A stretch of DNA of 64,000 nucleotides. Source: Chloroflexota bacterium. Lineage in GTDB: Bacteria > Chloroflexota > Limnocylindria > QHBO01. The notes below the pieces were generated by a model. That model made no database searches. It worked only from the letters and a program-made list of their open reading frames with translations, and had not been told where the DNA came from. Positions within the stretch are counted from its first letter, which is position 1. The number at the start of each line of letters is the position of its first letter. Positions 5,810-24,070 of the stretch are shown one piece after another. A program made the position numbers and the translations under genes. The stretch is from the NCBI GenBank assembly GCA_038040195.1, contig JBBPIR010000001.1:489141-553140 (forward strand), given 5' to 3'.

Positions 5810-6805
5810 TCAGCCGCTCGCCGCCGCCGAGGCCGCGGAGGCTCCGAACGTCAACCCGCGCTCCAAGCCGGCCTGCACGACCTGATAGGCGATGAGGAGT
5901 TGCGTGAGCGCCAGCGGGTCGGAGTGCCGCTCCACGCTGCCGTCGAGGTAACTGCCGATCTCCCCGGGACGGAGGTGACGATGCGTCTCCATGTGCGCCC
6001 AGATTCGCTCATCGAGCTCGAGAGAGCGTGAGGGCGAAACCGCTCCGTCGATCTCCAGGATGGAAGCGCCCGTAGCGTCCGCCTCCTGCTCGAGGCGAAT
6101 CGGGGGTGGCTCGTCCGCGGCGGCGCTCGCCAACACGTCGCCGAGGTCGAGCCGAGGAAGCCCAGGGCCGAGCCTGAGACGCACGTTCAGATGGGCGTCG
6201 TGATCGACGGCGGTTCCGGCCCGGAAATAGCCGGCCGGTGGGTAGAACTGGACGAGCATATCGGCGTACGCGCGCTGGGGTGCGAGGTACCGCCGATGGT
6301 CATCGCGCCTGTCGACGATCTGGCGGATGACTTCCGGCACGCTGTATCCGCGCTCCGCGCAGTCCCGCTTAACCTTCCAGGCCCACTTCAGCTCCTCCTG
6401 CGGCTGCAGCCACACGCGAACATCAAACGCGTTTCGCAGGTTCGCGGTCATCAGCGGAAAGAGGCCGCGGATGACGACGATCTCGCGCGGCTCGACATCC
6501 TCGCGCTGGCCGAAGGTCCCCGTCGAGTGGTCATAAGTTGGCTTCGAGATGGTCTCGCCGCGTGCAACAGCGGCGACCTGTCGCGCCATGAGCTCAATGT
6601 CGTTCGCGGCCGGGTTGAGGGCGGTCACGCCGAGCCGCTTGCGCTCTGCTCGGTCCAGCTTGTGGTAATCGTCGAGGCACAGGTTGGTGATCCGCTCCGC
6701 GCCGAAGATCCGATACAGGCCCCTGACCAGCGTCGTCTTGCCGCTGCCGCTGTCGCCTCCCACGGCCACCATGATCGGGCGATGGAAGTTCGTCGCCGCC
6801 ATCAA
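5810..6805 (-). CDS. prk: phosphoribulokinase
   Basis: 331 aa; P-loop GDSGSGKTT; strong similarity along length to cyanobacterial/bacterial PRK (ICLDDYH, ISKPTYDH, KWAWKVKRDCAERGYS); immediately downstream of rbcL on same strand. Confidence 0.85.
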   Translation of the reverse strand: MMAATNFHRPIMVAVGGDSGSGKTTLVRGLYRIFGAERITNLCLDDYHKLDRAERKRLGVTALNPAANDIELMARQVAAVARGETISKPTYDHSTGTFGQREDVEPREIVVIRGLFPLMTANLRNAFDVRVWLQPQEELKWAWKVKRDCAERGYSVPEVIRQIVDRRDDHRRYLAPQRAYADMLVQFYPPAGYFRAGTAVDHDAHLNVRLRLGPGLPRLDLGDVLASAAADEPPPIRLEQEADATGASILEIDGAVSPSRSLELDERIWAHMETHRHLRPGEIGSYLDGSVERHSDPLALTQLLIAYQVVQAGLERGLTFGASAASAAASG

Positions 6806-8143
6806 TCAGAACCTCACGCCCGACCACAGGTCGAGCGCCTGGCGCAATTCGGGGCAGGTACGCGCCGCGTGCGCGAGCGTCTGCCCGGCGGCCACCGCCT
6901 CCACCGCAACCCGCGCGGCGGTGGCACCGGCCCGGCTGCCGCCCGGATGGCCGTGCACGCCTCCACCGAACAGGAAGAAGGCGTCCGTCCCGAAGACCTC
7001 GTCGAGCTGGGGAACGTGGCCCGGGTGCAACCCGCCTGAGGCGACGGGAACCAGGGGCTTGAGCTCGCCCCAGGCCTGGTCGAACAGCGTCCCACCCCCG
7101 GCCGGCGCGAACGCGGCGGTCATCATTCGACGCCGCTCGCCCATCTCCTGGATGGTTCCCTCCAGCTTCCCGACCCCGGTGCCGACGTGGACGTGGTCCG
7201 CGCCCATCAGCCGCGCCCACTTGGCGATGACCAAGAAGTCCACGCCGTGGTCGGGGTGGCGATCCATCACCGCATGCATCGCCCGATGCGCGTGCAGCGC
7301 CAGGCCCAGCCGCTCGGTCTCCGCACGCAGCGACGCAGTCGCCGCGAAACCCGCCGTCAGGAAGTCGACCATCACGAACCGGCCGCCCTCGTCGGCCACC
7401 AGGTTGGCGCGGCGAAGCATCTCGCTGGTCTCGGCGGCGGTGACGTTGGCCCAATAGCCCTTGCGCTCCCCGGTCTCGGCCTCCGCGCGTTGCACGAGCT
7501 CCAGTGTCCGCCGGATGCGCTCGTCGAACGGCGACCAAGCCTGACTGTTCAGGTTCTCGTCGTCCTTGACGGTGTCGATCCCGCCCCGCAGCGTCTCGTA
7601 GGCGCGCCGCGCATGCTCGGCGGGCGAGAGCCCCAGTTTGGGTTTGATGGTAGATCCGGTCATCGCCCGGCCATGAACGTTCAGCTTCTCCCGGACGCCG
7701 GAGATGCCGAACGCAGGCCCTGGGAACGATTCGACCAGGGGTAGGGGGATACGCATGTCGAGCAGGCGAAGCGCGCTCACCGCCTTGAACCCAAAAACGT
7801 TGCCCACCACGCTGGACAGGATGTTGGGGATGCTGCCGAACTCGAACAGGTCAATCGGGTACGCGATCAAGGCGACGTCGGCGGCGATCCGGTACACCCG
7901 CGCCCGGAGCTGGTAGGCCAGGCCCTCGTCATCCTCGCTCACCTCGGTCCAGGTCCCCGTCGAGGACTCGGCCGCCACCGCCGCCGCGGCCTCCTCCATC
8001 GAGGTGTCCTCACGCGGGGCGAGCTTGAACGCAACCAGCAAGTCAGTCGCGGCGGGAACGTAGTCGAGGGCCAGATACAGCTCTTGGTACGAATGAACCC
8101 CACTGGTCCGCTCAGGTCCCGTCTGCGTTGAAGGCTGGGTCAT
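6806..8143 (-). CDS. rbcL: ribulose-1,5-bisphosphate carboxylase/oxygenase large subunit, form III-like
   Basis: 445 aa; AAVAAESSTGTWT, catalytic TIKPKLGLS, carbamylation motif GGIDTVKDDENL, HAHRAMHAV, GKLEG loop 6, VASGGLHPG, FGGG; length and C-terminus resemble archaeal form III; no small subunit gene nearby. Confidence 0.85.
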   Translation of the reverse strand: MTQPSTQTGPERTSGVHSYQELYLALDYVPAATDLLVAFKLAPREDTSMEEAAAAVAAESSTGTWTEVSEDDEGLAYQLRARVYRIAADVALIAYPIDLFEFGSIPNILSSVVGNVFGFKAVSALRLLDMRIPLPLVESFPGPAFGISGVREKLNVHGRAMTGSTIKPKLGLSPAEHARRAYETLRGGIDTVKDDENLNSQAWSPFDERIRRTLELVQRAEAETGERKGYWANVTAAETSEMLRRANLVADEGGRFVMVDFLTAGFAATASLRAETERLGLALHAHRAMHAVMDRHPDHGVDFLVIAKWARLMGADHVHVGTGVGKLEGTIQEMGERRRMMTAAFAPAGGGTLFDQAWGELKPLVPVASGGLHPGHVPQLDEVFGTDAFFLFGGGVHGHPGGSRAGATAARVAVEAVAAGQTLAHAARTCPELRQALDLWSGVRF

Positions 8144-12738: not shown

Positions 12739-13710
12739 ATGTCCTCCGGCCGCGCCCTTTTCACGCGCTTTCCCGGTAATCCGATCATTCGTGCAGCCGA
12801 CCTTCCCTACGACGCGAACGCGGTCTTCAACCCGGGCGCAGCCGAGGTCAACGGTGAGACCGTCCTTCTCCTTCGCGTGGAGGACCTCCGCGGCATCAGC
12901 CACCTCACCGTTGCCCGCAGCCGGGACGGGGTCAGCGACTGGCGAATCAACAGTGAGCCGAGCTTGCGCTCCGCCCCGGTGCGGTACCCGGAGGAGGTGT
13001 GGGGCATCGAGGATCCGCGGCTGACGTGGCTTGAGGAGATGCAGGCCTGGGTGATCGCCTACACCGCCTACAGCCGGCGCGGCCCGCTCGTCTCCTTTGC
13101 ACGCACGGCCGACTTCCGATCCTTCCGGAGGTTTGGCGCGGCGCTTCTGCCGGAGGACAAGGACGCCGCCCTGTTTCCGCGGCGATTCGGCGGCCGATGG
13201 GCGGTCATCCACCGTCCGACGCCGGTGCACGGGAACGCGAGCATGTGGATCTCCTATTCGCCCGACCTACGCCACTGGGGCGATTTCAGCCTGCTCCTCG
13301 AGCCACGCGAGGGCGCGTGGTGGGACTCGGCCAAGATCGGGCTGGGACCCCCGCCGCTGGAGACCCCCGAGGGCTGGTTGGTCATGTACCACGGTAGTCA
13401 TCTCACGGCCAGCGGCGCCCTGTACCGGACTGGGCTCGCCCTGCTCGATCTCGAGGACCCCAGGACCGTCCTGCGACGCAGCGACGAATGGGTGATCGGG
13501 CCGACTGAGCCCTATGAGCGGGTCGGCGACGTGGGCGGCGTCGTCTTCCCGTGCGGCTGGGTGCTGCATCGGGCGACCAACGAGCTCCGCGTGTACTACG
13601 GCGCAGCCGATACGTCCGTCGCGCTCGCCACCGCGCGCCTGGACGATGTGCTCGAGTACCTGCGCAGCTCCCCCCGGCCGACGCCGCAGAGGCGCCGGGT
13701 GCGCCTCTAG
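12739..13710 (+). CDS. glycoside hydrolase family 130 (mannoside phosphorylase-like)
   Basis: 323 aa; GH130 five-bladed propeller signatures NPGAAEVNGETVLLLRVED, IEDPRL, FPCGWV. Confidence 0.7.
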   Translation: MSSGRALFTRFPGNPIIRAADLPYDANAVFNPGAAEVNGETVLLLRVEDLRGISHLTVARSRDGVSDWRINSEPSLRSAPVRYPEEVWGIEDPRLTWLEEMQAWVIAYTAYSRRGPLVSFARTADFRSFRRFGAALLPEDKDAALFPRRFGGRWAVIHRPTPVHGNASMWISYSPDLRHWGDFSLLLEPREGAWWDSAKIGLGPPPLETPEGWLVMYHGSHLTASGALYRTGLALLDLEDPRTVLRRSDEWVIGPTEPYERVGDVGGVVFPCGWVLHRATNELRVYYGAADTSVALATARLDDVLEYLRSSPRPTPQRRRVRL

Positions 13711-16091
13711 CGGGCGACCTTCACGGCCGCCTGCAGGCCACGCAGGCTAGCGGGTGCCTGCCGAACCTCGCGGATCCGTTCCACGGCCAGCAGCCACGCG
13801 AGCGTCGACTCGGCGCCGCAGTTCGCGTTCACCCCATACGGACCCAGCCCGTCGTGGCAGGCTCCGGCCTGCGGGACGGCCAACGCCAGCCCGAGATGAT
13901 TCTCGCCGAGGAACCACGCGTAGGCGCGCTCCATGTCGTCCAGCCAGCGGGCATCACCGGTCACGATCAGGGCAGCGCGAGCGGCCTCCAGCAGCGACGT
14001 CGCTTCGATCGGCTGCTGGTCGAAGGACGCCGGGCGCCCACCACGGGGCCACCAGCCGCGGTTCCCGATGGGGACCAGGTGTCCGTCGGCGTCCGTCTGC
14101 GCGGCGAGCAGCCAGTCCAGCAGGCGGGCGCCGAGCTCGACCCAGCGGTCCTGGTTCAGCAAGTCGCCGGCGCTGAGGAGCGCCTGCGGCAGGGTCCCGT
14201 TGTCGTAGGTCACCGTCGCCTCTGGCCATGGCCAATCGGCAGTTGCAGGCGGGATGGATGCCGCCAGCGTTGTGGTGAGGCTCGCGAGCGATTGCCGCAG
14301 CGCTGGGCTCCCCGCAGAACGCAGGGCGGCCGCGCAGCCTAGGATCGCGTAGCAGCGTGGCCGGAGGTGAGCGAAGGCCAGCGCAGCCGGCAGGGCGGTG
14401 GTGAAGAGCTTCGACGCCAGGCGACGCGCCACATGGTCGTCGGAGCGGGCCAGGAACTCCCCGAGCGCCTGCAACGCGCGGCCGTGGCAGTCCTCGGAGC
14501 CGATCCGTTCAAGCCACACACCATCGGCACTCCGGAGGTTCCGGAAGCGTCCCGCCGCTGGGTCATAGGCGTCATCCAGAAAGCGCAGCGATCGGTGAAT
14601 CGAGGCCGTCACCGCTGGCCCTGGAGCCTGCTCCGCGTGGAGCAGATCCACCACCAGGGCACGCGCCACGTCATCGGTGCAGGTGCCGTGGCGCGGATCG
14701 GCAGTTTCGCCAATCGCATGCTGCCAGATCCCGCGCCCGGTCCCCAGGCGGGAAAGATGATGCCGTTCGATCCGCGGGAGGACCCGCGCCGGCAGAGTCT
14801 TGGCGGTGACGCGACCGTCAGACCGGGCGGCCTCTGGCCCGATCATCTGGACCGGTCGCAGCGCATGGCGCGCTTCGCCGGCCACCTGGGAGAAGATTGC
14901 CCGGTAGCCGTCGCCGACGGCGTCCCAACTCATGTCGGCGGCCAGCGCGCGTGCGCGGTTCCCGATTTTCTGCCGCTCAACGGGATGGGTGAGGAGCGCG
15001 AACAGCCGGTCGGCGAGCGCCTCGACGTCGTCGAATGGAAACAGGACCCCGCGGCCGTCGGCGAGGAGCTCCCGCGCGTACTCGTAGGGTGTCGAGATGC
15101 ACGCTCGACCGGCGGCCACGGCATATGCCAGCGTCCCCGAGGCAGCCTGCTCGGCGTTCCCGTACGGGGTGACGAAGAGGTCCGCGGCCTGCAGCCAGGC
15201 CACCAGCTCGTTGTCATCGACGTAGCGATCCACGAACAGGAGGTGACGCTCGAGGCCGAGCGCCTGCGCCCGCGCAGCGAGGGCAGCGCGATAGCGTTCC
15301 CCGTTTCGGAGCCGCACCTCTGGGTGCGTGGCACCGACGATCGCGAATCGAGTCTGTGGGACACGATCGCGGATTCTGGCGAGGGCATCGATCACCAATT
15401 CGAGGCGCTTGGCTGGACCAAGCAGGCCGAACGAAAGGATGAGAGGCCCTTCTGGCAAGCCGAGGCGGGCCCGTGCCTCGGCTGGGTCGACTATCTCGAT
15501 CTGCGGTACGCCGTGGGGAATGACCTGCAATGCATCGGACGGGGCCTCGTATTCGGTGCTGAGCAGGTGCCGCGCACGTTCGCTCATTACCACGACACGC
15601 GCCGATCGCCGCACCAGCTCGACGAGGATGGCGCGCTGGAGCGGTGTGGGATGGGGGCGGACCGTGTGCAGGGTGGTGACGAGGGGCACCCGCAACGCCG
15701 CCGCGAGCCCGAGGACGTGACGGCCGGATGGGCCACCGAATATGCCGTACTCGTGCTGGAGCGAGACGACCTCGGTACCAGCGACGGCCAGGTGGGCGGC
15801 GGCGGCGACATACGCCTCGGCGTCGGAGCGCTTCAGGCGGAAGGTGACCTCGGGCGGATACCGGGGCGGGTCCCGGCGGCCGCGGTCTACCGCGACCACC
15901 AGCGGTGTGCGCGCGCCCGGCGGTGTGAGATCTACCAGTGCGTCGCGCAGGTCACGCGTGAAGGTGGCGATCCCGCAACGCCGAGGCGGATAGGTCCCTA
16001 CCAAGGCCAGGGCCGGAAGGTCCTGCCACGTCGCGGTCATCCTCACCTCCCGGCGCGGGCACAGCAGGTGTCGCGGATGGAGCGACGCCAT
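13707..16091 (-). CDS. GT4 glycosyltransferase fused to ~390 aa C-terminal glycosidase-like domain
   Basis: 794 aa; N-terminal GT4 (GIATFTRDL, C-terminal EQAASGTLAYAVAAGRACISTPY with E-x7-E); C-terminal half Trp/Ala-rich, alpha-helical, unassigned. Confidence 0.55.
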   Translation of the reverse strand: MASLHPRHLLCPRREVRMTATWQDLPALALVGTYPPRRCGIATFTRDLRDALVDLTPPGARTPLVVAVDRGRRDPPRYPPEVTFRLKRSDAEAYVAAAAHLAVAGTEVVSLQHEYGIFGGPSGRHVLGLAAALRVPLVTTLHTVRPHPTPLQRAILVELVRRSARVVVMSERARHLLSTEYEAPSDALQVIPHGVPQIEIVDPAEARARLGLPEGPLILSFGLLGPAKRLELVIDALARIRDRVPQTRFAIVGATHPEVRLRNGERYRAALAARAQALGLERHLLFVDRYVDDNELVAWLQAADLFVTPYGNAEQAASGTLAYAVAAGRACISTPYEYARELLADGRGVLFPFDDVEALADRLFALLTHPVERQKIGNRARALAADMSWDAVGDGYRAIFSQVAGEARHALRPVQMIGPEAARSDGRVTAKTLPARVLPRIERHHLSRLGTGRGIWQHAIGETADPRHGTCTDDVARALVVDLLHAEQAPGPAVTASIHRSLRFLDDAYDPAAGRFRNLRSADGVWLERIGSEDCHGRALQALGEFLARSDDHVARRLASKLFTTALPAALAFAHLRPRCYAILGCAAALRSAGSPALRQSLASLTTTLAASIPPATADWPWPEATVTYDNGTLPQALLSAGDLLNQDRWVELGARLLDWLLAAQTDADGHLVPIGNRGWWPRGGRPASFDQQPIEATSLLEAARAALIVTGDARWLDDMERAYAWFLGENHLGLALAVPQAGACHDGLGPYGVNANCGAESTLAWLLAVERIREVRQAPASLRGLQAAVKVAR

Positions 16092-16385
16092 GCCCGGCCC
16101 TGATGGCTGCGACGACCACGTGCATCAGCAGAGATCGTGGACCTGAGCAGCGGGGTCCGGATCTGCGAACACGCGTCGCGGCTGCACGTGCTCATGGAGC
16201 TGCGCAACTTGAGCGGGCCCCGTCGCGGGGCCTCGTGGTAGCACCCGATGGTATCGCCGGCGGTGGCCGCGGGTCAAATCGCCGCATTCGCGGCGAGCCG
16301 GCGTTCAGGTCGCAGCCGGGGCGTCAAACCGAACAGACGATCGCGCCTCCGATTCGTGAGCGGGGCAACTTCGTGCTCAGAAGAC

Positions 16386-16460
16386 TGGAGCCGAAGGTGG
16401 GATTCGAACCCACGACCGACGGTTTACGAAACCGTTGCTCTACCCCTGAGCTACTTCGGC
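16386..16460 (-). tRNA. tRNA-Thr (anticodon CGT)
   Basis: manual fold: acceptor GCCGAAG/CTTCGGC, D arm GCTC-AGGGGTA-GAGC, anticodon arm ACGGT-TTCGTAA-ACCGT, T arm GTGGG-TTCGAAT-CCCAC, discriminator T, encoded CCA. Confidence 0.8.
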
Positions 16461-17339
16461 CCGATCGCCGGCCGATTTTAGCGCCTCTCCCTTTGCGCTC
16501 CCCAACCTGACCGAGGGCGGCGCCCAGCCGTGGAGCAGCTCGTCGTGGTAGCGCGGCCCGCGCTCCAGCGAACGGGGAATGGGGGCCATCCGCGCCTTTC
16601 CGCGCTGGACCAGGGCGAAGTACGGGCACAGGTCGGTGAGCGGGCACAGGCCGCAGATGGGGCGCGGGGCGCGGCACACCTCCCGCCCGTGGCGTATGAG
16701 CAGCACGTGCCCGGCGTACATGGCCTCGGGCGGCACCACTTCCTCCAGCAGGTCGTGGGCCCGGGTCAGGTCGGTCTTGGGCGGGAGCAGGCCCAGCCGG
16801 GAGGCGACTCGATAGACGTGGGTGTCGACCGGCAGCGCGGGCCGGCCGAACGCGAACAGGAGCACGATCGATGCCGTCTTGCGCCCAATCCCGGGCAGGC
16901 CCACCAGCCACTCGCGGGCCCGCTCGAGCGGCCACTCCCGCAGGTACCCGAGGTCCCAGGTCCCGTTCGTGGCGTCGTGGACCTCGGCCAGAACGAGCTG
17001 GATGCGGCGGGACTTGGTTGGGGCCAGCCCGCCGGGCCGGATGACGTCTGCCAGTTCGTCGGTCGGCGCAGCCAGCACGGCGTCCCACGACGGGTAGGCA
17101 GCCCGCAGGGCCACGAAGGCGCGGTGCGAATTCGTGTCGGCCGTGTTCTGGGCCAGCACGGTCAGGACCAGCTCCGCGACGGGGTCCAGCCGCGGACCGG
17201 ACCAGACCGGCATTCCGTATCGGTCAGCCAGGCGTTCCAGGATGGGACGGATGCGCGCGCGCCGCACGCGGCGCAGCGCGGCCAGCCGGCGGCGGTTGAC
17301 CCGCGATCGCACCCTGCGAGGTCGTGCGGCGTCCGTCAC
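16440..17339 (-). CDS. nth: endonuclease III family DNA glycosylase (HhH-GPD, 4Fe-4S)
   Basis: HhH motif LVGLPGIGRKTASIVLLFAF, catalytic D in PVDTHVYRV, Fe-S loop CRAPRPICGLCPLTDLCP; start uncertain (GTG 17339 chosen; track ORF extends to 17537); 3' end overlaps tRNA. Confidence 0.6.
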   Translation of the reverse strand: MTDAARPRRVRSRVNRRRLAALRRVRRARIRPILERLADRYGMPVWSGPRLDPVAELVLTVLAQNTADTNSHRAFVALRAAYPSWDAVLAAPTDELADVIRPGGLAPTKSRRIQLVLAEVHDATNGTWDLGYLREWPLERAREWLVGLPGIGRKTASIVLLFAFGRPALPVDTHVYRVASRLGLLPPKTDLTRAHDLLEEVVPPEAMYAGHVLLIRHGREVCRAPRPICGLCPLTDLCPYFALVQRGKARMAPIPRSLERGPRYHDELLHGWAPPSVRLGSAKGEALKSAGDRAEVAQG

Positions 17340-17624
17340 GCGGCTCCCAGCCTCGCGGTCTCGCGGGCATACCCGGCCCAGGCCCCGGCTCCGAGTCGCG
17401 AGGCCTGGCCCAGGTCGACGATCCGACCCCGACCATCCTGCCGCGTGGCCCACGCGTCCGCGTGGTCGGGTGAGCAGAGCAGCACGGTTGGGGTGCAGAA
17501 CTCGGCCCTCAAGTCCGTTCCGCCGGCGGCCAACCACAGGCGCTGGGGTGGCTCGGCCTCGGCCCCGATCGGTACCCGGAGCGTGAATGCGGTGCGCCGC
17601 ACGATCTCGTCGACGTCTCGCACG

Positions 17625-18800
17625 TTAGCCTCGGCTCCCCAATCCCTGACCGATGTCGATGCTGCGCGCCAACCGGGCAGCCGCATTGGCCAGCAGGCGT
17701 TCGGTGTCGGCCATGGCGATTTCCAGGCCGAGTGGTCGATCGATGATGGGCTGCACCACGGCGAACGCCCCCGACTCCTCGACGATCTCGGCGCCTGGGC
17801 CCAGGCCGCCGCACAGCAGGACGACCGGGGCATTGCCGGCATGATGGGCCACCCCCAGCGCCGCCTTGCCGGCCAGGGTCTGCTCGTCGGCCCGCCCCTC
17901 CCCGGTGATGACCAGGTCCGCCCCCTCGCAGGCCGCCGCCAGGCCCACCAGGTCGGCCACGACCTCCACGCCGGAGCGCAGCTCGGCGGAGGTGAAGCCC
18001 AGCAGCCCGGCCGTTGTCCCGCCGGCCGCGCCGGCGCCTCGGACCTCCGCCACGTCGCGACCCGTCGCTCGTCGGATCTCGGCTCCCCAGCGCACCAGGG
18101 CCTCGTCCAGCTCGGCGACGGCGTCGGGGTCCGCGCCCTTCTGCGGCCCGTAGCTCGCGGCTGCGCCGTTCGGCCCGGTCAGGGGGTTGGTGACGTCGGA
18201 AGCGATCAGGATCTCGACCTCGGCCAGCCGCGGATCGAGCCCGTCGGCGTCGACGTGGTCCAACGTCGCCAGGGCCGCGCCGCCGTCCGGCACCTGGCCC
18301 CCGCGGGCGTCGAGCAGCCGGAGCCCCATCTCGACCAGCAGCCCCGCCCCGCCATCGGTGGTGGCCGATCCGCCAAGGCCAACCACGATCCGTCCCGTGC
18401 CGGCATCCAGCGCCGCCGCGATGAGCCGTCCCGACCCCCGGGTCGTGGCCAACCGAGCACTGGTCGACGTCCGCTCCGCCAAGGCCAGCCGCGCCAGCCC
18501 GCTGGCCGCCGCCATCTCCACGAACCCCGTTGCACCGCCGTCGAGCGCCAGCCAGTCCGCGCTGATCGGCCGGCCCAGGGGATCGGTCGTCATCACCGTG
18601 TTCCGGGTGGCCGCGCTTCCCCGAGCTGCGGCGATCGCGGCCAGGGTCCCCTCGCCCCCGTCCGCCATCGGGATCTTCACCACCACATCGTCGGGCCGCG
18701 CCGAGGCCCAGCCGCGGGCCATGGCCTCGGCGACCGCCACCGAGTCCAGCGCACCCCCGAACGAGTCGGGAGCCACGACCACGCGCAGCGGCGGGCTCAT
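17625..18800 (-). CDS. glycerate kinase (GlxK/GarK family)
   Basis: 391 aa; VVAPDSFGGAL N-terminus and Gly-rich GLGGSATTDGGAG motifs. Confidence 0.8.
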   Translation of the reverse strand: MSPPLRVVVAPDSFGGALDSVAVAEAMARGWASARPDDVVVKIPMADGGEGTLAAIAAARGSAATRNTVMTTDPLGRPISADWLALDGGATGFVEMAAASGLARLALAERTSTSARLATTRGSGRLIAAALDAGTGRIVVGLGGSATTDGGAGLLVEMGLRLLDARGGQVPDGGAALATLDHVDADGLDPRLAEVEILIASDVTNPLTGPNGAAASYGPQKGADPDAVAELDEALVRWGAEIRRATGRDVAEVRGAGAAGGTTAGLLGFTSAELRSGVEVVADLVGLAAACEGADLVITGEGRADEQTLAGKAALGVAHHAGNAPVVLLCGGLGPGAEIVEESGAFAVVQPIIDRPLGLEIAMADTERLLANAAARLARSIDIGQGLGSRG

Positions 18801-20707
18801 CGGGAAAGCTCCTTGCGCCTCGCGAGGTAGGCGGGGATCGTGTTCATCGGCGGTCGAATCTCGTCCCCCACCTCGCGGACCTCCAGGCTGAATTTGTCAC
18901 CTTCCTGGCGGATCTGCTTCATCCGCTCGCCCATGTCGGTCAGCAGCTCAATCCGCTGACGCTCCTCCAGCTTGGTGATCCCGGCCTTGAGGATGACAAA
19001 GGCCATCCGCGACAGGTCCAGCAGCGACTGGTTGCGATGGATGCGGCGCTCGAGGTCGACCTGCCCGATGCCGGACAGGCCGACGCGGTCCAGGATGTCG
19101 ATGAGCAGCCCGATCTCGACCGCGTAGCCGGTGAAGAACGGCACCGACTCGAGGAGCGCGCGACGCCCCGCGTACTCCCCGGCCAGGGGTTGGATGATGC
19201 CGGACAGCTCGGGGAAGAACAGGTTGATGAGCGGGCGAGCGGTCAGCTCTGTCACCCGTCCGCCCTCGTCGGGCTGGCGCCGCCCGCCAGCCGTCAGGGG
19301 CCGTTGGTAGAAGGCCTTCACGTAGTGGATCCGCGACTCGCGCAGGAGCGGGCCCAGCAGGCCGTACACGAAGCGAGGCTGGATGTTGCGGATGTCGGTG
19401 TCGACCCAGACCACGATGTCCCCGCGCAGCTCGTACAGGCTCTTCCACAGCGCTTCGCCCTTGCCGACGTGGCTCCCCAGCTCCGGGAGGATGGTGTCGT
19501 GCTGGCGGACGGGTGCCCCCAGCTCGCGGGCGATCTCCACCGTTCGGTCGGTGGAGGCCGAGTCGATGACGAGCAGCTCGTCCACCAACGGCACGCGGTC
19601 CATGAGCGCATCGCGAATGCGACGGATGACCAGCCCGATGGTCTTCTCTTCGTTCAGGGTCGGTAGTCCCACGCTGATGGTCAGGCCCTGGCGCTCCTTG
19701 AGGTCCACCAGGCGCTTGAGGTCGCGAAATTCGCTGGTGTCGAACGTGTTCTCGGCAAACCAGCGGTCGACCACGCTCGGCAGGCTGCGGGTCTGCTCGA
19801 TGGCGGCGTCCGCGGCGGGCAGGCTTCCGGTCTCGGCCCGGAGATGTTCGAAGGTGACTGCGGTGAACGGTTGTCGGGTCTTGACCACCATCACGGTTGG
19901 CTTGGCGCGGCTGGCGACTGTCTCCGCCAGCCGCCCGAACAGGCGCCGGCCCGATCCGGCTCCGGTCGGCTGGGCAGAGGCCCCGACCACAACCAGGTCG
20001 TGGTTCGCGGCCTCTTGCAGGATGGCGCCCCGAACGGTCGGCGCCTCCACCAGCAGCTGGCGGACCTTGACCCCTCGGGTATTACGCCTGACCAGGCGGC
20101 CAAGCGCCGCCCGCTCGTCCTCGAGCGCGGCCGAGCCACCCTCGGGCGGGACCACGTGCAGAACGACCAGCTCAGCGCCGAAGCCGCGCGCCAGGTCGGT
20201 GGCCAGCGAGAGCGCCAGCTCGGCATTCGGACCTCCCCGAACCGGGACCAGGATGGAGCGGACGGTTCCCAGTGCGCGCTGCTTGACCACGGCGATATCG
20301 CATGGGGCCTCACGGACGACCTGGTCAATGGTGGTCGAGAAGACCGCGTGCCGCAGGCCGGTCGGTTGGGGGCCGCCCCAGCCGAAGACCACCAGGTCGG
20401 CCCCGATCTCGGCCACCGCCTCCACGATCCCCTCCGACGCCTGGCGGCCGATGCGGACCGCGGTATGGACCTCGACCGACGCGTCGTCCCGGAAGTCAGG
20501 CACCCGCTGGAGCAGGCGGCGGGCCTGGCGCGCGCGGCTGGCGCCCTCCGCCAGCGACACGCCCTCGGGGACCTCGACGATGCCCAGCGCGGTGATCTCG
20601 GTGGGCCGCCGGTGGGCGAGGTGGGAACCGATGCGGATCAGGTCGCGCGCGGTGCGCGGGTTGGCCAGCGGCATGAGGACCCGATACGGACCACGCCGGC
20701 GGGCCAT
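18797..20707 (-). CDS. tandem universal stress protein (UspA) domains fused to glucosyl-3-phosphoglycerate synthase-like GT-A glycosyltransferase
   Basis: 636 aa; two USP-like halves (LVVFGWGG, LVVVGAS); C-terminal GT-A domain ISVGLPTLNEEKTI, LVIDSASTDRT, WVDTDIRN (DxD) resembling GpgS/MpgS; 4 nt overlaps with both neighbours. Confidence 0.55.
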   Translation of the reverse strand: MARRRGPYRVLMPLANPRTARDLIRIGSHLAHRRPTEITALGIVEVPEGVSLAEGASRARQARRLLQRVPDFRDDASVEVHTAVRIGRQASEGIVEAVAEIGADLVVFGWGGPQPTGLRHAVFSTTIDQVVREAPCDIAVVKQRALGTVRSILVPVRGGPNAELALSLATDLARGFGAELVVLHVVPPEGGSAALEDERAALGRLVRRNTRGVKVRQLLVEAPTVRGAILQEAANHDLVVVGASAQPTGAGSGRRLFGRLAETVASRAKPTVMVVKTRQPFTAVTFEHLRAETGSLPAADAAIEQTRSLPSVVDRWFAENTFDTSEFRDLKRLVDLKERQGLTISVGLPTLNEEKTIGLVIRRIRDALMDRVPLVDELLVIDSASTDRTVEIARELGAPVRQHDTILPELGSHVGKGEALWKSLYELRGDIVVWVDTDIRNIQPRFVYGLLGPLLRESRIHYVKAFYQRPLTAGGRRQPDEGGRVTELTARPLINLFFPELSGIIQPLAGEYAGRRALLESVPFFTGYAVEIGLLIDILDRVGLSGIGQVDLERRIHRNQSLLDLSRMAFVILKAGITKLEERQRIELLTDMGERMKQIRQEGDKFSLEVREVGDEIRPPMNTIPAYLARRKELSR

Positions 20708-21939
20708 CAGCCCGGCCCCCCGACCTTTCCCCCGGCCGACTGCGCCTGCCAGGCGCGGACCAGCCAGGGCTTGAGGTCCTCGAACTCGCGGGCCTGGCTC
20801 TCGACCAGCCGTTCGGCCTGCTCATCGGTCATCTCACGAGCCTCATTGAAGAAGCCCGCGGTACGCCCGAAGTACAGCCCGGTCAGGCCCGCCAGCAGCG
20901 CGTCGCGGTCGATGCCCGGCCGTTGAAAGGCGAGCAACGCGTCGTAGAGGCAGCGGATCCAGAGCTCCGAGGGGAAGGTGAAGGCCGCAGGGTCCTCGGC
21001 AGGCAGCGCCAGCACCCGTTCCAGCTGCTCCCCGGCCAGGGTCCGCTTCCACACCTGGCGCTGGGCCAGGCGCGCGGTCTCGAACGCGTCCACGAGCTTG
21101 GCCTGGTTGACCGTTATCGCCTCTGGCAGCACCACCCGCTCGAAGCCGTACTCGGGAACCGGCTGCGAGCCGCGGACCGGGAGCCACGCCTCGGACATCG
21201 AGCCAGCCAGCCGGAACAGGGTGCCGACCACCTGCCGGAACATGGGTCCCAGGTCAGAGGCGGGATCCTTGGGGTCGTGGATCTTGGCCCCCAGCCTGGT
21301 CTGGCACACCGCAAACCCGGCGGCCAGGGCGTGGTGAGTCATCCAGACGTCGATCCCGAACTTCGCCGTGGCCTCGTCCCAGTCGTCGAGTTCCAGCAGG
21401 GCGTTGACCAGGTCGCGGCTGAAGGCGAACTCGCCCCCGATCGGCTGGCGCATCCGCCGCCCATACAGGGTCCGCGTCAGGGGGTAGGCGATCTGGTTGG
21501 TGATGGTCCCGTCGAACTTGTGGCGCGCGTACAGAGGGGCCACGTAGTCGTAGCCGCCCTTCAGGATCGGACCCGCCAGCAGCTCTATCCACTCGGGCAC
21601 GATGCTCCGCAGGTCGGAGTCGACCAGCACCAGGGCCTCGACCTTCAGCTCGCGGGCGACCTCCAGCAGCGCCCGGACGGCGGACCCCTTGCCGCTCGGC
21701 CCGCGGTAGGTGACCGCGACCCGTCGCAGCCGATGCGGCGGCCGGACCAGGATCATCTTTTCGAGGTAGGCGGGGCTCTCCGTGCTGACCGCCACCCGTG
21801 GCGTGTCGTCGGGCGATCCCCCGTCGGCGTTGACCAGGACCGGCTTCAACTCCGGGAAGTACTGGACCATGCCGGCCATGGCGGCCCGGACGACGTAACC
21901 GATGGTGTCGGCGTTGCCGAAGCTGGGGATCCCGACCAT
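20707..21939 (-). CDS. GT-A fold glycosyltransferase (family 2-like), specificity unknown
   Basis: MVGIPSFGNADTIGYVV start typical of GT2, VLVDSDL (DxD); start at ATG 21939 uncertain, GTG 22008 possible. Confidence 0.5.
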   Translation of the reverse strand: MVGIPSFGNADTIGYVVRAAMAGMVQYFPELKPVLVNADGGSPDDTPRVAVSTESPAYLEKMILVRPPHRLRRVAVTYRGPSGKGSAVRALLEVARELKVEALVLVDSDLRSIVPEWIELLAGPILKGGYDYVAPLYARHKFDGTITNQIAYPLTRTLYGRRMRQPIGGEFAFSRDLVNALLELDDWDEATAKFGIDVWMTHHALAAGFAVCQTRLGAKIHDPKDPASDLGPMFRQVVGTLFRLAGSMSEAWLPVRGSQPVPEYGFERVVLPEAITVNQAKLVDAFETARLAQRQVWKRTLAGEQLERVLALPAEDPAAFTFPSELWIRCLYDALLAFQRPGIDRDALLAGLTGLYFGRTAGFFNEAREMTDEQAERLVESQAREFEDLKPWLVRAWQAQSAGGKVGGPG

Positions 21940-22004
21940 GAGGTCCGCCTGGCCGACCCCCCGCACTGCGGACCGACCGCGCGCATCGAGGGCGGAGGCG
22001 ACGC

Positions 22005-22703
22005 TCACCGGGTGATCTCGCGCTTCTTGCGTCCCTTCCAGAACAGGCCGGTCACGCCGGGGTGCCGGTCTGGGTCGATGGTGATGATGATCCAGTCCTC
22101 GTTCGACGTCCCGGGCCGGTAGCGCGAGTTGGCGTGCTTGGCCACCGCGCGGCTGAATCCGTTCTCCTGCCAGGCGTGGAACCACGACCGGAGTGGCATC
22201 TTGATCGAGGGCGTGACCCGCAGCCGAACACTCTCGCTGACCACCCCCGACAGGAGGCGGCGGCGCTCCTGGTACGGGTGCTCACCCAAGAACTGCCCGT
22301 CCAGCTCGATGAGGTCGACGACCACGAATGCGCGCCGCTTCTCCAGCTGCGCGGGATCGGGTCCGTCCTCGGGCAGATCGCCGGCCTCGTCGGCCAGCGC
22401 TTCGGACCAGCGTTCGGCCGCCGATCCGCGACCCAGGAACGGCTGTGCGGTCCAGATCCCGTCCAGCACCGCCTGGTCGGCGTCGACCGAGGTCCGCAGC
22501 ACCTCGGCCAGGTCGCCGTAGAACTCGTCGACGGCGTGTCCGCCGGCATCGGTCAGGCGAATTTCGCCGTCCGCGACGCGAGCCAGCAGCCGTTCCCCGA
22601 TCCAGTACGGCTCGAACGACCAATGCGGACTGTTGATTCCGACGCTCGCCTCGGTGGCGAGCTGGGGGCGGATCGGCTCGTCGCCCAAGGGCTGATCGGT
22701 CAT
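22005..22703 (-). CDS. ATP-dependent DNA ligase-domain-like protein, predicted catalytically inactive
   Basis: motif III FVVVDLIELDG, motif IV/V ENGFSRAVAKHANSRYRPGTSNEDWIII recognisable; motif I reads FEPYWIGER instead of EPKxDGxR. Confidence 0.45.
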   Translation of the reverse strand: MTDQPLGDEPIRPQLATEASVGINSPHWSFEPYWIGERLLARVADGEIRLTDAGGHAVDEFYGDLAEVLRTSVDADQAVLDGIWTAQPFLGRGSAAERWSEALADEAGDLPEDGPDPAQLEKRRAFVVVDLIELDGQFLGEHPYQERRRLLSGVVSESVRLRVTPSIKMPLRSWFHAWQENGFSRAVAKHANSRYRPGTSNEDWIIITIDPDRHPGVTGLFWKGRKKREITR

Positions 22704-23836
22704 CGGTACAGGCCCAGCTCCCCCTCTTCGACCTCCATGCCCACCTCGGACCGGATGGCCTGCCACGCGTCGAGATCCCACTCGGCGACGAACGTGATGG
22801 CCGTGCCGGCACGCCCCATTCGCGCCGTGCGACCCACCCGGTGGACGTAGGTGTCCGCGTCCTCGGGGATGTCGTAGCTCAGGACGTACGGCAGGTCGGT
22901 GATGTCCAGCCCGCGGCTGGCGACATTGGTGGCCACCAGGAACTGGATCTCCCCCGCCTTGAAAGCGGCCAGCGTCTTCTCCCGCTCCCGCTGGGACAGG
23001 CCGCCATGGAGGGCGGCCGCGTTCCTGCCCCGCCGCTTGAGCGAGGCGCTCAGCCGATCCACGCCGATCTGGGTATGGCGGAAGATGAGGAGCCGATCGA
23101 ACCCGAACCCATCGGCCAGCTCAATCAGGGCCGCCACTTTGTCCTGCTCGGCCACGAAGTAGACCATCTGGCGGACCGTTTCGACCAACTTCAGCTCGGG
23201 ACGGACCGCGATGTGGTCCGCGTCGCGGCGCATGAACCGATCGCAGATGCGGAGGATGGCGTACGGCATGGTGGCGCTGAACAGCGCCGTCTGGCGTTGG
23301 CGCGGGCAGCGGGCCAGGATCGTCTCCACGTCCACGATGAAGCCCATGTCCAACATCCGGTCGGCCTCGTCGAGGATCACGGTCCGCACCGATTCCAGGC
23401 GCAGCTCCCCTCGACGGATGAGGTCGAGAACGCGCCCCGGGGTGCCGATCACGACTTGCGCTCCGCGCTGGAGGGCGGTGATCTGGCGGTCCATGGCCGC
23501 TCCGCCGTAGATGGCCACCGTCTTGACGTTCCGGAAGCGCCCGATGCGGGCGATCTCGGCGGTGACCTGCTGGCACAGCTCCCGGGTGGGGGTCAGGATC
23601 AGGGCCTGGACCGATTTCGAGCCGGGGTCCACGTGCTCGACGATGGGGATCCCGAACGCGGCCGTCTTGCCCGTCCCGGTCTGGGCCTGACCGATGAGAT
23701 CGTGGCCCGCCCGGAGGGGCGGAATAGCCCGGGCCTGGACCTCGGTGGGCGTGACGTAGCCCATCTGCTCCAGGGCGCGGGCGATGGTGACCGGGACCTC
23801 GATGTCCCCGAACCGATACCCGGCCGCAGCGGCCAT
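22700..23836 (-). CDS. DEAD-box ATP-dependent RNA helicase
   Basis: Q motif, AQTGTGKT, PTRELC, DEAD, SAT, HRVGRTAR; start at ATG 23836 (track ORF extends to 23968 with Arg/Pro-rich leader). Confidence 0.8.
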   Translation of the reverse strand: MAAAAGYRFGDIEVPVTIARALEQMGYVTPTEVQARAIPPLRAGHDLIGQAQTGTGKTAAFGIPIVEHVDPGSKSVQALILTPTRELCQQVTAEIARIGRFRNVKTVAIYGGAAMDRQITALQRGAQVVIGTPGRVLDLIRRGELRLESVRTVILDEADRMLDMGFIVDVETILARCPRQRQTALFSATMPYAILRICDRFMRRDADHIAVRPELKLVETVRQMVYFVAEQDKVAALIELADGFGFDRLLIFRHTQIGVDRLSASLKRRGRNAAALHGGLSQREREKTLAAFKAGEIQFLVATNVASRGLDITDLPYVLSYDIPEDADTYVHRVGRTARMGRAGTAITFVAEWDLDAWQAIRSEVGMEVEEGELGLYR

Positions 23837-24070
23837 CACGGCCGCAGTCAGCGCGGAGAGGGGTTCGGCAGTCGGTTCGGCGGTGGGCTGGCGGCCGTCG
23901 GTGTGCGGCGGCGGGACCGGCGCGCGGCGACGCGTTCGGCGACGGGGCGTGGTCGGGGTTGGCGGCAAGCAGTGGCTCCGGCAGGTTGTTGATCGGTTGC
24001 TCGGATCGTAGCACGGGCGCTTCCCGCGCCTTGACGGCGGCCCATTACGCGTTGATACTGCGTCTCAGGT

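Follow-up and report, generated by a model that had tools for sequence, protein, structure and literature searches.

Organization of the locus

The DNA described here is a 64,000 nt stretch (hereafter the window) from a Chloroflexota bacterium (Limnocylindria; QHBO01), corresponding to positions 489,141–553,140 of contig JBBPIR010000001.1 in assembly GCA_038040195.1, with a G+C content of about 70 %. Within it lie three minus-strand open reading frames (ORFs), g1, g2 and g3, arranged head to tail and with coding-type G+C contents at third codon positions (0.87–0.90), which probably specify the synthesis of a glycerate-based glycoside (Table 1). The middle gene encodes two tandem universal stress protein (USP) domains joined to the enzyme glucosyl-3-phosphoglycerate synthase (GpgS); this fusion is standard in the class Limnocylindria. 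The overlaps of 1–4 nt between the three co-directional genes, described in an earlier note on this DNA, can be read directly from the sequence: at the g1/g2 junction (cTGATGg) the g1 TGA (20709–20707) and the g2 ATG (20707–20705) have one nucleotide in common, and at the g2/g3 junction (ATGA) the g2 stop codon (18799–18797) and the g3 ATG (18800–18798) overlap by 4 nt. With a common strand and overlapping stop and start codons, the three genes have the arrangement expected of an operon.

Table 1. The g1-g2-g3 genes, the domains of g2 and the flanking features, in window coordinates
Feature	Position	Strand	Length and basis
g1, MGS/GgS-like retaining GT-A glycosyltransferase with helical C-terminal domain (predicted)	20707..22008	-	433 aa from GTG 22008 (most likely start)
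g2, fusion of tandem USP and GT81 glucosyl-3-phosphoglycerate synthase (predicted)	18797..20707	-	636 aa; translation and domain matches
USP domain 1 of g2, residues ~9–142	20282..20683	-	best Pfam Usp stretch
USP domain 2 of g2, residues ~150–285	19853..20260	-	second Pfam Usp stretch
GT81 GpgS catalytic domain of g2, residues 313–625	18833..19771	-	NF010496
g3, class-I glycerate kinase	17625..18800	-	391 aa; PF02595, TIGR00045
LigD-like ATP-dependent ligase-domain ORF, upstream, co-directional	22005..22781	-	conserved upstream in relatives; context only
HhH-GPD DNA glycosylase, downstream, co-directional	16440..17537	-	conserved after the kinase in relatives; context only
tRNA-Thr(CGT), closes the co-directional gene string	16386..16460	-	Rfam

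The 5′ end of the cluster had been placed at ATG 21939, which would give a g1 product of 410 amino acids (aa), and this position needs to be revised. The 23 residues encoded upstream of that ATG are conserved in homologues that start there (MSVASALDARG... in P0121, 95 % identity, and MKVASALDARG... in P0138), and the same stretch aligns from residue 1 with an Acidobacteriota homologue. Because these upstream codons are conserved and aligned from the first residue, g1 most likely begins at GTG 22008.

Gene g2 encodes a USP-GpgS fusion

A Pfam scan of g2 finds two Usp stretches and a GT2-type domain. The two stretches match the Usp family (PF00582) in tandem with 94.4 bits (cut-off 24, E-value 1.2e-26), and NF010496, the NCBIfam equivalog model for GpgS, matches with 386.8 bits (cut-off 262) over profile positions 5–306 of 307. 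The earlier note's description of the middle gene as two USP domains and a GpgS-like GT-A domain thus stands, the hidden Markov model comparison that it proposed for the C-terminal part having given a full-length match above the cut-off, and the motifs it quoted (ISVGLPTLNEEKTI, DSASTD and DTDIR) are all present in the g2 translation. Among solved structures, the best matches of the GT81 domain are to Rubrobacter xylanophilus mannosyl-3-phosphoglycerate synthase (MpgS; 3f1y, 254.6 bits), Mycobacterium hassiacum GpgS (7p5l, 246.9 bits) and Mycobacterium tuberculosis GpgS (204 bits), while a dolichol-phosphate mannose (DPM) synthase structure gives 25 bits. Grouping with the dolichol-phosphate mannosyltransferases, which would have spoken against a GpgS-like enzyme, can be rejected, since matches of the dolichol- or undecaprenyl-phosphate transferase type reach 20–45 bits compared with 387 for the GpgS model and about 250 for the GpgS and MpgS structures.

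The residues to which roles have been given in M. tuberculosis GpgS (PMC2581804), namely L52, E54, S81, K114, D134/D136, R185, T187, L209, Y229, E232, R256, H258, N260 and M269, all have equivalents in g2 (L351, E353, S383, K416, D436-T-D438, R484-V485-T486, L508, Y528, E531, R555, H557, N559 and M568). These include the DxD motif (D436-T-D438), the Asp-Lys-Glu network (K416 and E531), the metal-binding histidine (H557) and the Val-Thr pair that holds the acceptor carboxylate (V485-T486), and the C-terminal domain is predicted to be an intact GpgS-type GT81 enzyme. The candidate for the mannose-excluding loop reads PLAGEY in g2, with Tyr213 and Tyr165 as in GpgS and an alanine at the position of Ser210 as in Rubrobacter MpgS; at position 213 the Rubrobacter enzyme has a phenylalanine, and the glucose-specific GpgS enzymes and g2 a tyrosine. 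On the evidence of the model and structure matches, the conserved residues and this loop, we call the enzyme GpgS-type and regard glucose as its probable, rather than proven, donor sugar.

The USP half is divergent, the best match to a solved USP structure having an E-value of 0.003. In domain 1 the motif reads GWGG-11x-ST in place of G-2x-G-9x-G(S/T), with insertions of 15–25 aa in this loop in close relatives, and the corresponding motif of domain 2 (GASA...FGR) is also non-canonical. The stress-regulated synthesis proposed in the earlier note therefore draws on the family name, because the USP ATP-binding motif is absent from both domains.

Gene g1 encodes a two-domain GT-A glycosyltransferase

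The g1 product matches the Pfam MGS_GT family marginally (30.4 bits, cut-off 27) and over the glycosyltransferase domain only, and the GpgS model weakly (56 bits). An AlphaFold2 model built on 69 diverse homologues has a mean predicted local distance difference test (pLDDT) score of 89.2, and its best fold matches in the PDB (Foldseek) are all to the mannosylglycerate synthase (MGS) of Rhodothermus marinus (2y4j/2bo4; E-value 1e-13, template-modelling score 0.63–0.72). In the predicted structure the alignment with MGS runs the full length of the protein, through the GT-A domain and the helical C-terminal domain (about 412–425 columns), whereas GpgS structures cover the GT-A half only. Invariant in all 69 sequences are K84, D107-x-D109, I146-T147, D197 and H221 (numbered for the 410 aa form), of which I146-T147 align with Ile138-Thr139 of MGS and Val186-Thr187 of GpgS, the residues that hold the glycerate carboxylate. 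Several homologues carry the Joint Genome Institute (JGI) product name ‘glucosylglycerate synthase’. Gene g1 is thus modelled as an intact retaining GT-A enzyme with the two-domain fold of mannosylglycerate synthase (GT78-like); of the earlier description as a generic GT-A glycosyltransferase, the fold class was right, and the family match and the fold point more specifically to an MGS-like two-domain enzyme. It is not an MggA, which is a GT4 protein.

A tblastn search of plasmids with g1 returned only unnamed GT-A matches (H2–H12), on plasmids of Bacillus thuringiensis and Bacillus mycoides, with 26–29 % identity to the g1 GT-A domain.

Gene g3 encodes a glycerate kinase

The identification of the downstream gene as a glycerate kinase is borne out by matches to PF02595 (Gly_kinase; 397.7 bits, E-value 6e-119) and TIGR00045 (369.6 bits, cut-off 168.45). 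The g3 product falls under the cut-offs of both equivalog models, with 275 bits against 625 for the 3-kinase and 274 bits against 686 for the 2-kinase. The further suggestion that the kinase supplies the phosphoglycerate acceptor is less secure: 3-phosphoglycerate belongs to central metabolism, and glycerate kinase also adjoins catabolic genes, being co-located with glucosylglycerate genes in the clusters of the GH13_18 glucosylglycerate phosphorylase (PMC7178133). The two kinds of cluster have a co-located glycerate kinase in common, although those of GH13_18 are catabolic and built on the phosphorylase, and there is no phosphorylase or hydrolase at g1-g2-g3.

Distribution of the fusion in the Chloroflexota

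More than 120 full-length homologues of the g2 fusion were found with 66–99 % identity, mostly in organisms named Candidatus Limnocylindria. A scan of species-representative genomes with g2 gave at least 593 matches, the best 80 of which were used for locus comparisons; these 80 are all full-length fusions (56–99 % identity) in metagenome-assembled genomes (MAGs) of Limnocylindria/Chloroflexota, and the one with 99 % identity (L007) is evidently from the same species as the window. A g1 homologue lies directly upstream of the fusion in all 75 loci that could be evaluated, with a median gap of 0, and in each of the 66 loci evaluable for the kinase this gene follows downstream on the same strand, either adjacent (41 loci) or 0.2–2 kb away (25 loci).

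When 1.84 billion cluster representatives were searched, about 45 of the 150 top-ranking clusters had the USP-USP-GpgS architecture at full length, at identities as low as 33–36 %, with named members in Limnocylindria, Anaerolineales and Dehalococcoidia. The fusion is not rare, and its range of sequence divergence indicates that it is old and has been maintained; annotation pipelines already name it either ‘glucosyl-3-phosphoglycerate synthase’ or USP. Of 40 divergent representatives of USP-USP-GT81 clusters, about 15 (P0336, P0346, P0362, P0284, P0379 and others) lack the equivalents of K114, D136, H258 or R256, and these proteins may be catalytically dead pseudo-glycosyltransferases, or the pattern may reflect an alignment fault.

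In an Anaerolineales MAG (L087, 4485–9141) two GT4 genes precede the USP-GpgS fusion, and a 60 aa ORF at its 3′ side, overlapping it by 4 nt, starts with the RHG motif of histidine phosphatases (MMATLYLVRHGETPWN...). This ORF appears to be truncated; it may be a pseudogene or owe its length to an error of assembly.

The g1 family and GpgS in other lineages

Outside this arrangement, g1-like and GpgS sequences are found within single polypeptides. P0272 consists of GpgS and a g1-like domain (40 % identity, E-value 2e-96), and P0243 of a g1-like domain, USP and GpgS (53 % identity), the latter in separate JGI, Logan and ENA assemblies, so that by sequence g1 and GpgS appear to have been joined in two independent fusion architectures.

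In Nitrospirota and Acidobacteriota, members of the g1 family commonly occur on their own, as proteins of about 420 aa. At two Nitrospira loci the g1 homologue adjoins a GpgS of about 408 aa of the Methanococcoides/Persephonella type (NF040724, 340–347 bits, full length) and an MscS-like protein, and one of the two (L092) also has a HAD phosphatase of the MPGP family and trehalose synthesis genes. At an Acidobacteriota locus the g1 homologue has an MPGP-family phosphatase on one side and, on the other, an MscS-like gene followed by a glycerate kinase that shares 40 % identity with g3. The g1 family therefore appears to be linked to GpgS by both fusion and neighbourhood in several phyla.

We note that in four Nitrospirota and Acidobacteriota loci (L091 6001–9352, L092 485–8058, L005 7001–8954 and L006 6074–10347) an MscS-like protein of about 235 aa always comes after the g1 homologue, with varying partners that include the Methanococcoides-type GpgS, the MPGP-family phosphatase, OtsA/OtsB, a sugar ABC transporter and glycerate kinase; the whole looks like an unannotated osmoprotectant island. 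Other fusion architectures of GpgS were also seen (P0287, P0301, P0322 and P0328), namely a 1383 aa protein with GT4, GpgS and GH13 domains (JGI name ‘glucosylglycerate phosphorylase’), a 750 aa protein with GT4 and GpgS, a GpgS joined to a HAD-IIB phosphatase (its cluster includes members from Aenigmarchaeota), and an 893 aa protein with USP, GT2 and a partial glycerate kinase.

Relation to known systems

Glucosylglycerate is a solute accumulated under osmotic stress and nitrogen limitation, and is also the primer of the mycobacterial methylglucose lipopolysaccharide (MGLP). The full-length catalytic domain of g2 matches the mycobacterial GpgS enzymes (M. tuberculosis Rv1208 and that of M. 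hassiacum) with about 245 bits, and keeps their DxD motif, Lys-Asp-Glu network, metal-binding histidine and acceptor Val-Thr pair. Those enzymes are about 325 aa long and lack a USP portion, however, whereas g2 has some 310 additional N-terminal residues that make up the tandem USP. Mycobacterial GpgS feeds MGLP synthesis and is partnered by the histidine phosphatase GpgP (PMC3240985), and g2 differs from it further in having no phosphatase nearby. The R. xylanophilus MpgS/GpgS (GT81), which gives the best structural match and shares the alanine at S210, has only a short N-terminal extension with no USP, and a phenylalanine where g2 has Tyr213. For g1, the comparable system is R. marinus MGS (GT78), with which it has in common the two-domain architecture and the catalytic and acceptor residues, although the identity is only 16–19 % and g1 has the conserved 23 aa N-terminal extension.

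Fernandes and co-workers reportedly described, in 2007, a ggs-gpgS-gpgP cluster in Persephonella marina that provides both a one-step and a two-step route to glucosylglycerate. A one-step-type glycosyltransferase and a GpgS would be encoded together in both organisms, but the GpgS of g2 is of the GT81 type and fused to USP, there is no gpgP, and a glycerate kinase has been added. Of the two Nitrospira loci with g1 homologues, both have a GpgS of the Persephonella/Methanococcoides type and L092 also has an MPGP phosphatase, which completes the triad.

USP modules are physically coupled to osmoadaptation functions elsewhere, as in the N-terminal USP of KdpD and in the ATP-binding TeaD of the Halomonas ectoine TRAP transporter. 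Their targets are a sensor kinase and a transporter, whereas in g2 a tandem USP whose ATP motif is degenerate is joined to a biosynthetic enzyme, a glycosyltransferase.

Proposed pathway and alternatives

On balance we favour, with reasonable though far from complete confidence, the interpretation that g1-g2-g3 is a conserved Limnocylindria cluster for the synthesis of a glycerate-based glycoside, most likely the compatible solute glucosylglycerate or another hexosyl-glycerate akin to it; there would be two routes of entry, with a kinase at the point where they branch. The GT81 domain of g2 would transfer hexose from a nucleoside diphosphate (NDP)-hexose to D-3-phosphoglycerate, giving glucosyl-3-phosphoglycerate, and g1 would be a one-step synthase acting on NDP-hexose and free D-glycerate in the manner of P. 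marina Ggs or R. marinus MGS, so that the solute could be reached from either phosphoglycerate or glycerate. At the branch point g3 would convert free glycerate, whether imported or freed by degradation of the solute, to phosphoglycerate for use by GpgS or in glycolysis. The phosphatase that acts on the GpgS product would be encoded elsewhere, and the N-terminal tandem USP would serve as a regulatory or oligomerization module tying GpgS activity to the state of the cell. The arrangement resembles the one reported for P. marina. The known occurrence of glycerate kinase beside glucosylglycerate genes (PMC7178133) also fits this interpretation.

Several observations weigh against this interpretation. 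The phosphatase that the earlier note had suggested looking for did not turn up: no GpgP-type enzyme, either HAD-IIB MPGP or histidine phosphatase, was present among the 33 window ORFs scanned, and tblastn gave no GpgP-type match in the window or within 8 kb of the locus in the 80 related loci. In the 25 of 66 loci with a gap before the kinase, the intervening genes are unrelated and encode an M28 peptidase, an ECF sigma factor or a GNAT protein; they were considered as candidates for the missing phosphatase and rejected on these identities. The whole 10 kb neighbourhood (DEAD helicase, ligase, HhH-GPD and GalE) is equally syntenic across the class, the more distant fusions stand alone, with neither g1 nor the kinase, and the canonical G-2x-G-9x-G(S/T) motif is in neither USP domain. 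For the fusions of GpgS with g1, consecutive steps would be at least as good an explanation as parallel routes, and the solved structure that the GT81 domain matches best is that of a mannosyl-3-phosphoglycerate synthase. Finally, the donor and acceptor of g1 are putative assignments.

The main rival is a sequential pathway, in which g1 would add a second hexose to glucosyl-3-phosphoglycerate or glucosylglycerate to yield a diglycosyl-glycerate such as mannosylglucosylglycerate or diglucosylglycerate. Fusions of the kind seen in P0272 and P0243 often join consecutive steps, g1 and g2 are translationally coupled, no GpgP lies between GpgS and g1, and the PIGGEF loop and Asp197 of g1 are nearer to those of the mannose-using MGS than to GpgS; the Anaerolineales fusion is accompanied by two GT4 enzymes, as in the pathways to mannosylglucosylglycerate or for MGLP initiation. 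However, the known second-step enzymes (MggA) belong to GT4 and not to GT-A (PMC3736172), g1 retains the glycerate-carboxylate Ile-Thr pair at its acceptor site and matches MGS over both domains, and the Acidobacteriota homologue of g1 has a phosphatase and a kinase as neighbours, while GpgS is absent to a distance of 7 kb. We regard the sequential pathway as unlikely, if worth bearing in mind.

More doubtful still is a role of the GT81 domain as mannosyl-3-phosphoglycerate synthase, or as a dual enzyme, with mannosylglycerate as the product. The Rubrobacter MpgS is indeed the top structural match, and the alanine at the S210 position is that of the Rubrobacter enzyme, but the gap in score to M. 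hassiacum GpgS (254.6 versus 246.9 bits) is trivial, g2 passes the curated GpgS equivalog model, and it has both Tyr213 and Tyr165 of the proposed mannose-excluding loop network, the Rubrobacter enzyme having Phe at 213.

Because unrelated DNA-repair genes are equally syntenic, adjacency inside the Limnocylindria is by itself weak evidence, and the evidence from outside the class is the stronger. That the three genes are neighbours through inherited synteny only, the kinase working in the general metabolism of glycerate or serine and the USP being an inert relic, accords with that class-wide synteny of helicase, ligase, HhH-GPD and GalE genes, with the genes inserted ahead of the kinase and with the degenerate ATP motif, but is very improbable given the independent g1-GpgS fusions, the linkage of g1 to the kinase in another phylum (Acidobacteriota) and the retention of the tandem USP at full length to about 35 % identity across Chloroflexota classes.

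The suggestion in the earlier note that the product might instead be an MGLP primer is not upheld, in that no methyltransferase, acyltransferase or elongating glycosyltransferase is conserved in the cluster or among its conserved neighbours. Its remark that it knew of no characterized USP fusion to GpgS agrees with our literature search, in which none of the papers covered links USP with GpgS; the same search gave nothing relevant on glucosylglycerate in Nitrospira or Chloroflexi, or on glucosyl- compounds in Limnocylindria.

Possible regulation and significance

If the favoured pathway of glycerate-based solute synthesis is taken as a basis, a more speculative extension, which we put forward tentatively, is that the tandem USP senses a ligand or partner linked to stress and turns GpgS on or off accordingly. 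Together with the one-step synthase and the kinase, it could form a post-translational switch that commits glycerate or phosphoglycerate to the solute. To our knowledge, the regulation of glucosylglycerate synthesis at the protein level is largely unknown, and such a switch, if real, would be the first mechanism known to regulate it directly. It would characterize an abundant class of uncultured bacteria from soil and fresh water, in which it is set within a conserved stress/DNA-repair gene string.

What is new here is a conserved domain architecture and an operon variant in an uncultured class; the pathway is already known, and the predicted catalytic functions follow from homology. Existing knowledge is thus extended with a new architecture and none is overturned, but the class-wide fusion of GpgS to a tandem USP in abundant uncultured Chloroflexota offers a natural system for the question of enzyme control, and the question of its regulation is worth biochemical follow-up. 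The prediction also follows that Limnocylindria use glycerate-based solutes. In addition, a widespread and mostly unannotated family of MGS-like glycosyltransferases (Chloroflexota, Nitrospirota and Acidobacteriota) gains a pathway context, comprising GpgS, MPGP phosphatase, an MscS-like protein and glycerate kinase.

Surroundings of the cluster

The genes run co-directionally in the order DEAD helicase, LigD-like ligase domain, g1, g2, g3, HhH-GPD glycosylase and tRNA-Thr, and since the helicase and ligase genes precede the cluster and the glycosylase and tRNA-Thr come after it, g1-g2-g3 form the mid-section of a longer string. The GTG start of g1 overlaps the stop codon of the ligase-like ORF by 4 nt, and at its 3′ end the HhH-GPD ORF runs into the tRNA-Thr(CGT). 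A scan of the region for promoters and terminators gave matches at chance level, none of them convincing, and the Rfam scan found the tRNA only and no riboswitch. After the tRNA-Thr there is a weak hairpin followed by a run of Ts and then the region's only sigma-70-like match (16248–16348, minus strand), right before a GT4 gene. The flanking of the solute genes by a DEAD-box helicase, a LigD-like ORF with the ligase domain only and an HhH-GPD glycosylase (16440–23968, minus strand) is kept in the same order across Limnocylindria, and may represent a stress/DNA-repair gene string or plain inherited synteny.

The GT4 gene (13707–16091, minus strand) encodes 794 aa, of which the C-terminal 390 or so have no family match, and is convergent with a gene for a GH130 mannoside-phosphorylase-like protein (12739–13710, plus strand). 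The pair was considered for membership of the cluster and rejected: among the relatives it occurs only in the same-species locus L007, and the GT4 protein has no meaningful similarity to the GT4 part of the GT4-GpgS fusion. About 10 kb from the cluster, a RuBisCO large-subunit homologue (6806–8143, minus strand; PF00016, E-value 1.6e-97) lies directly upstream of a phosphoribulokinase gene (5810–6805); the product of RuBisCO is 3-phosphoglycerate.

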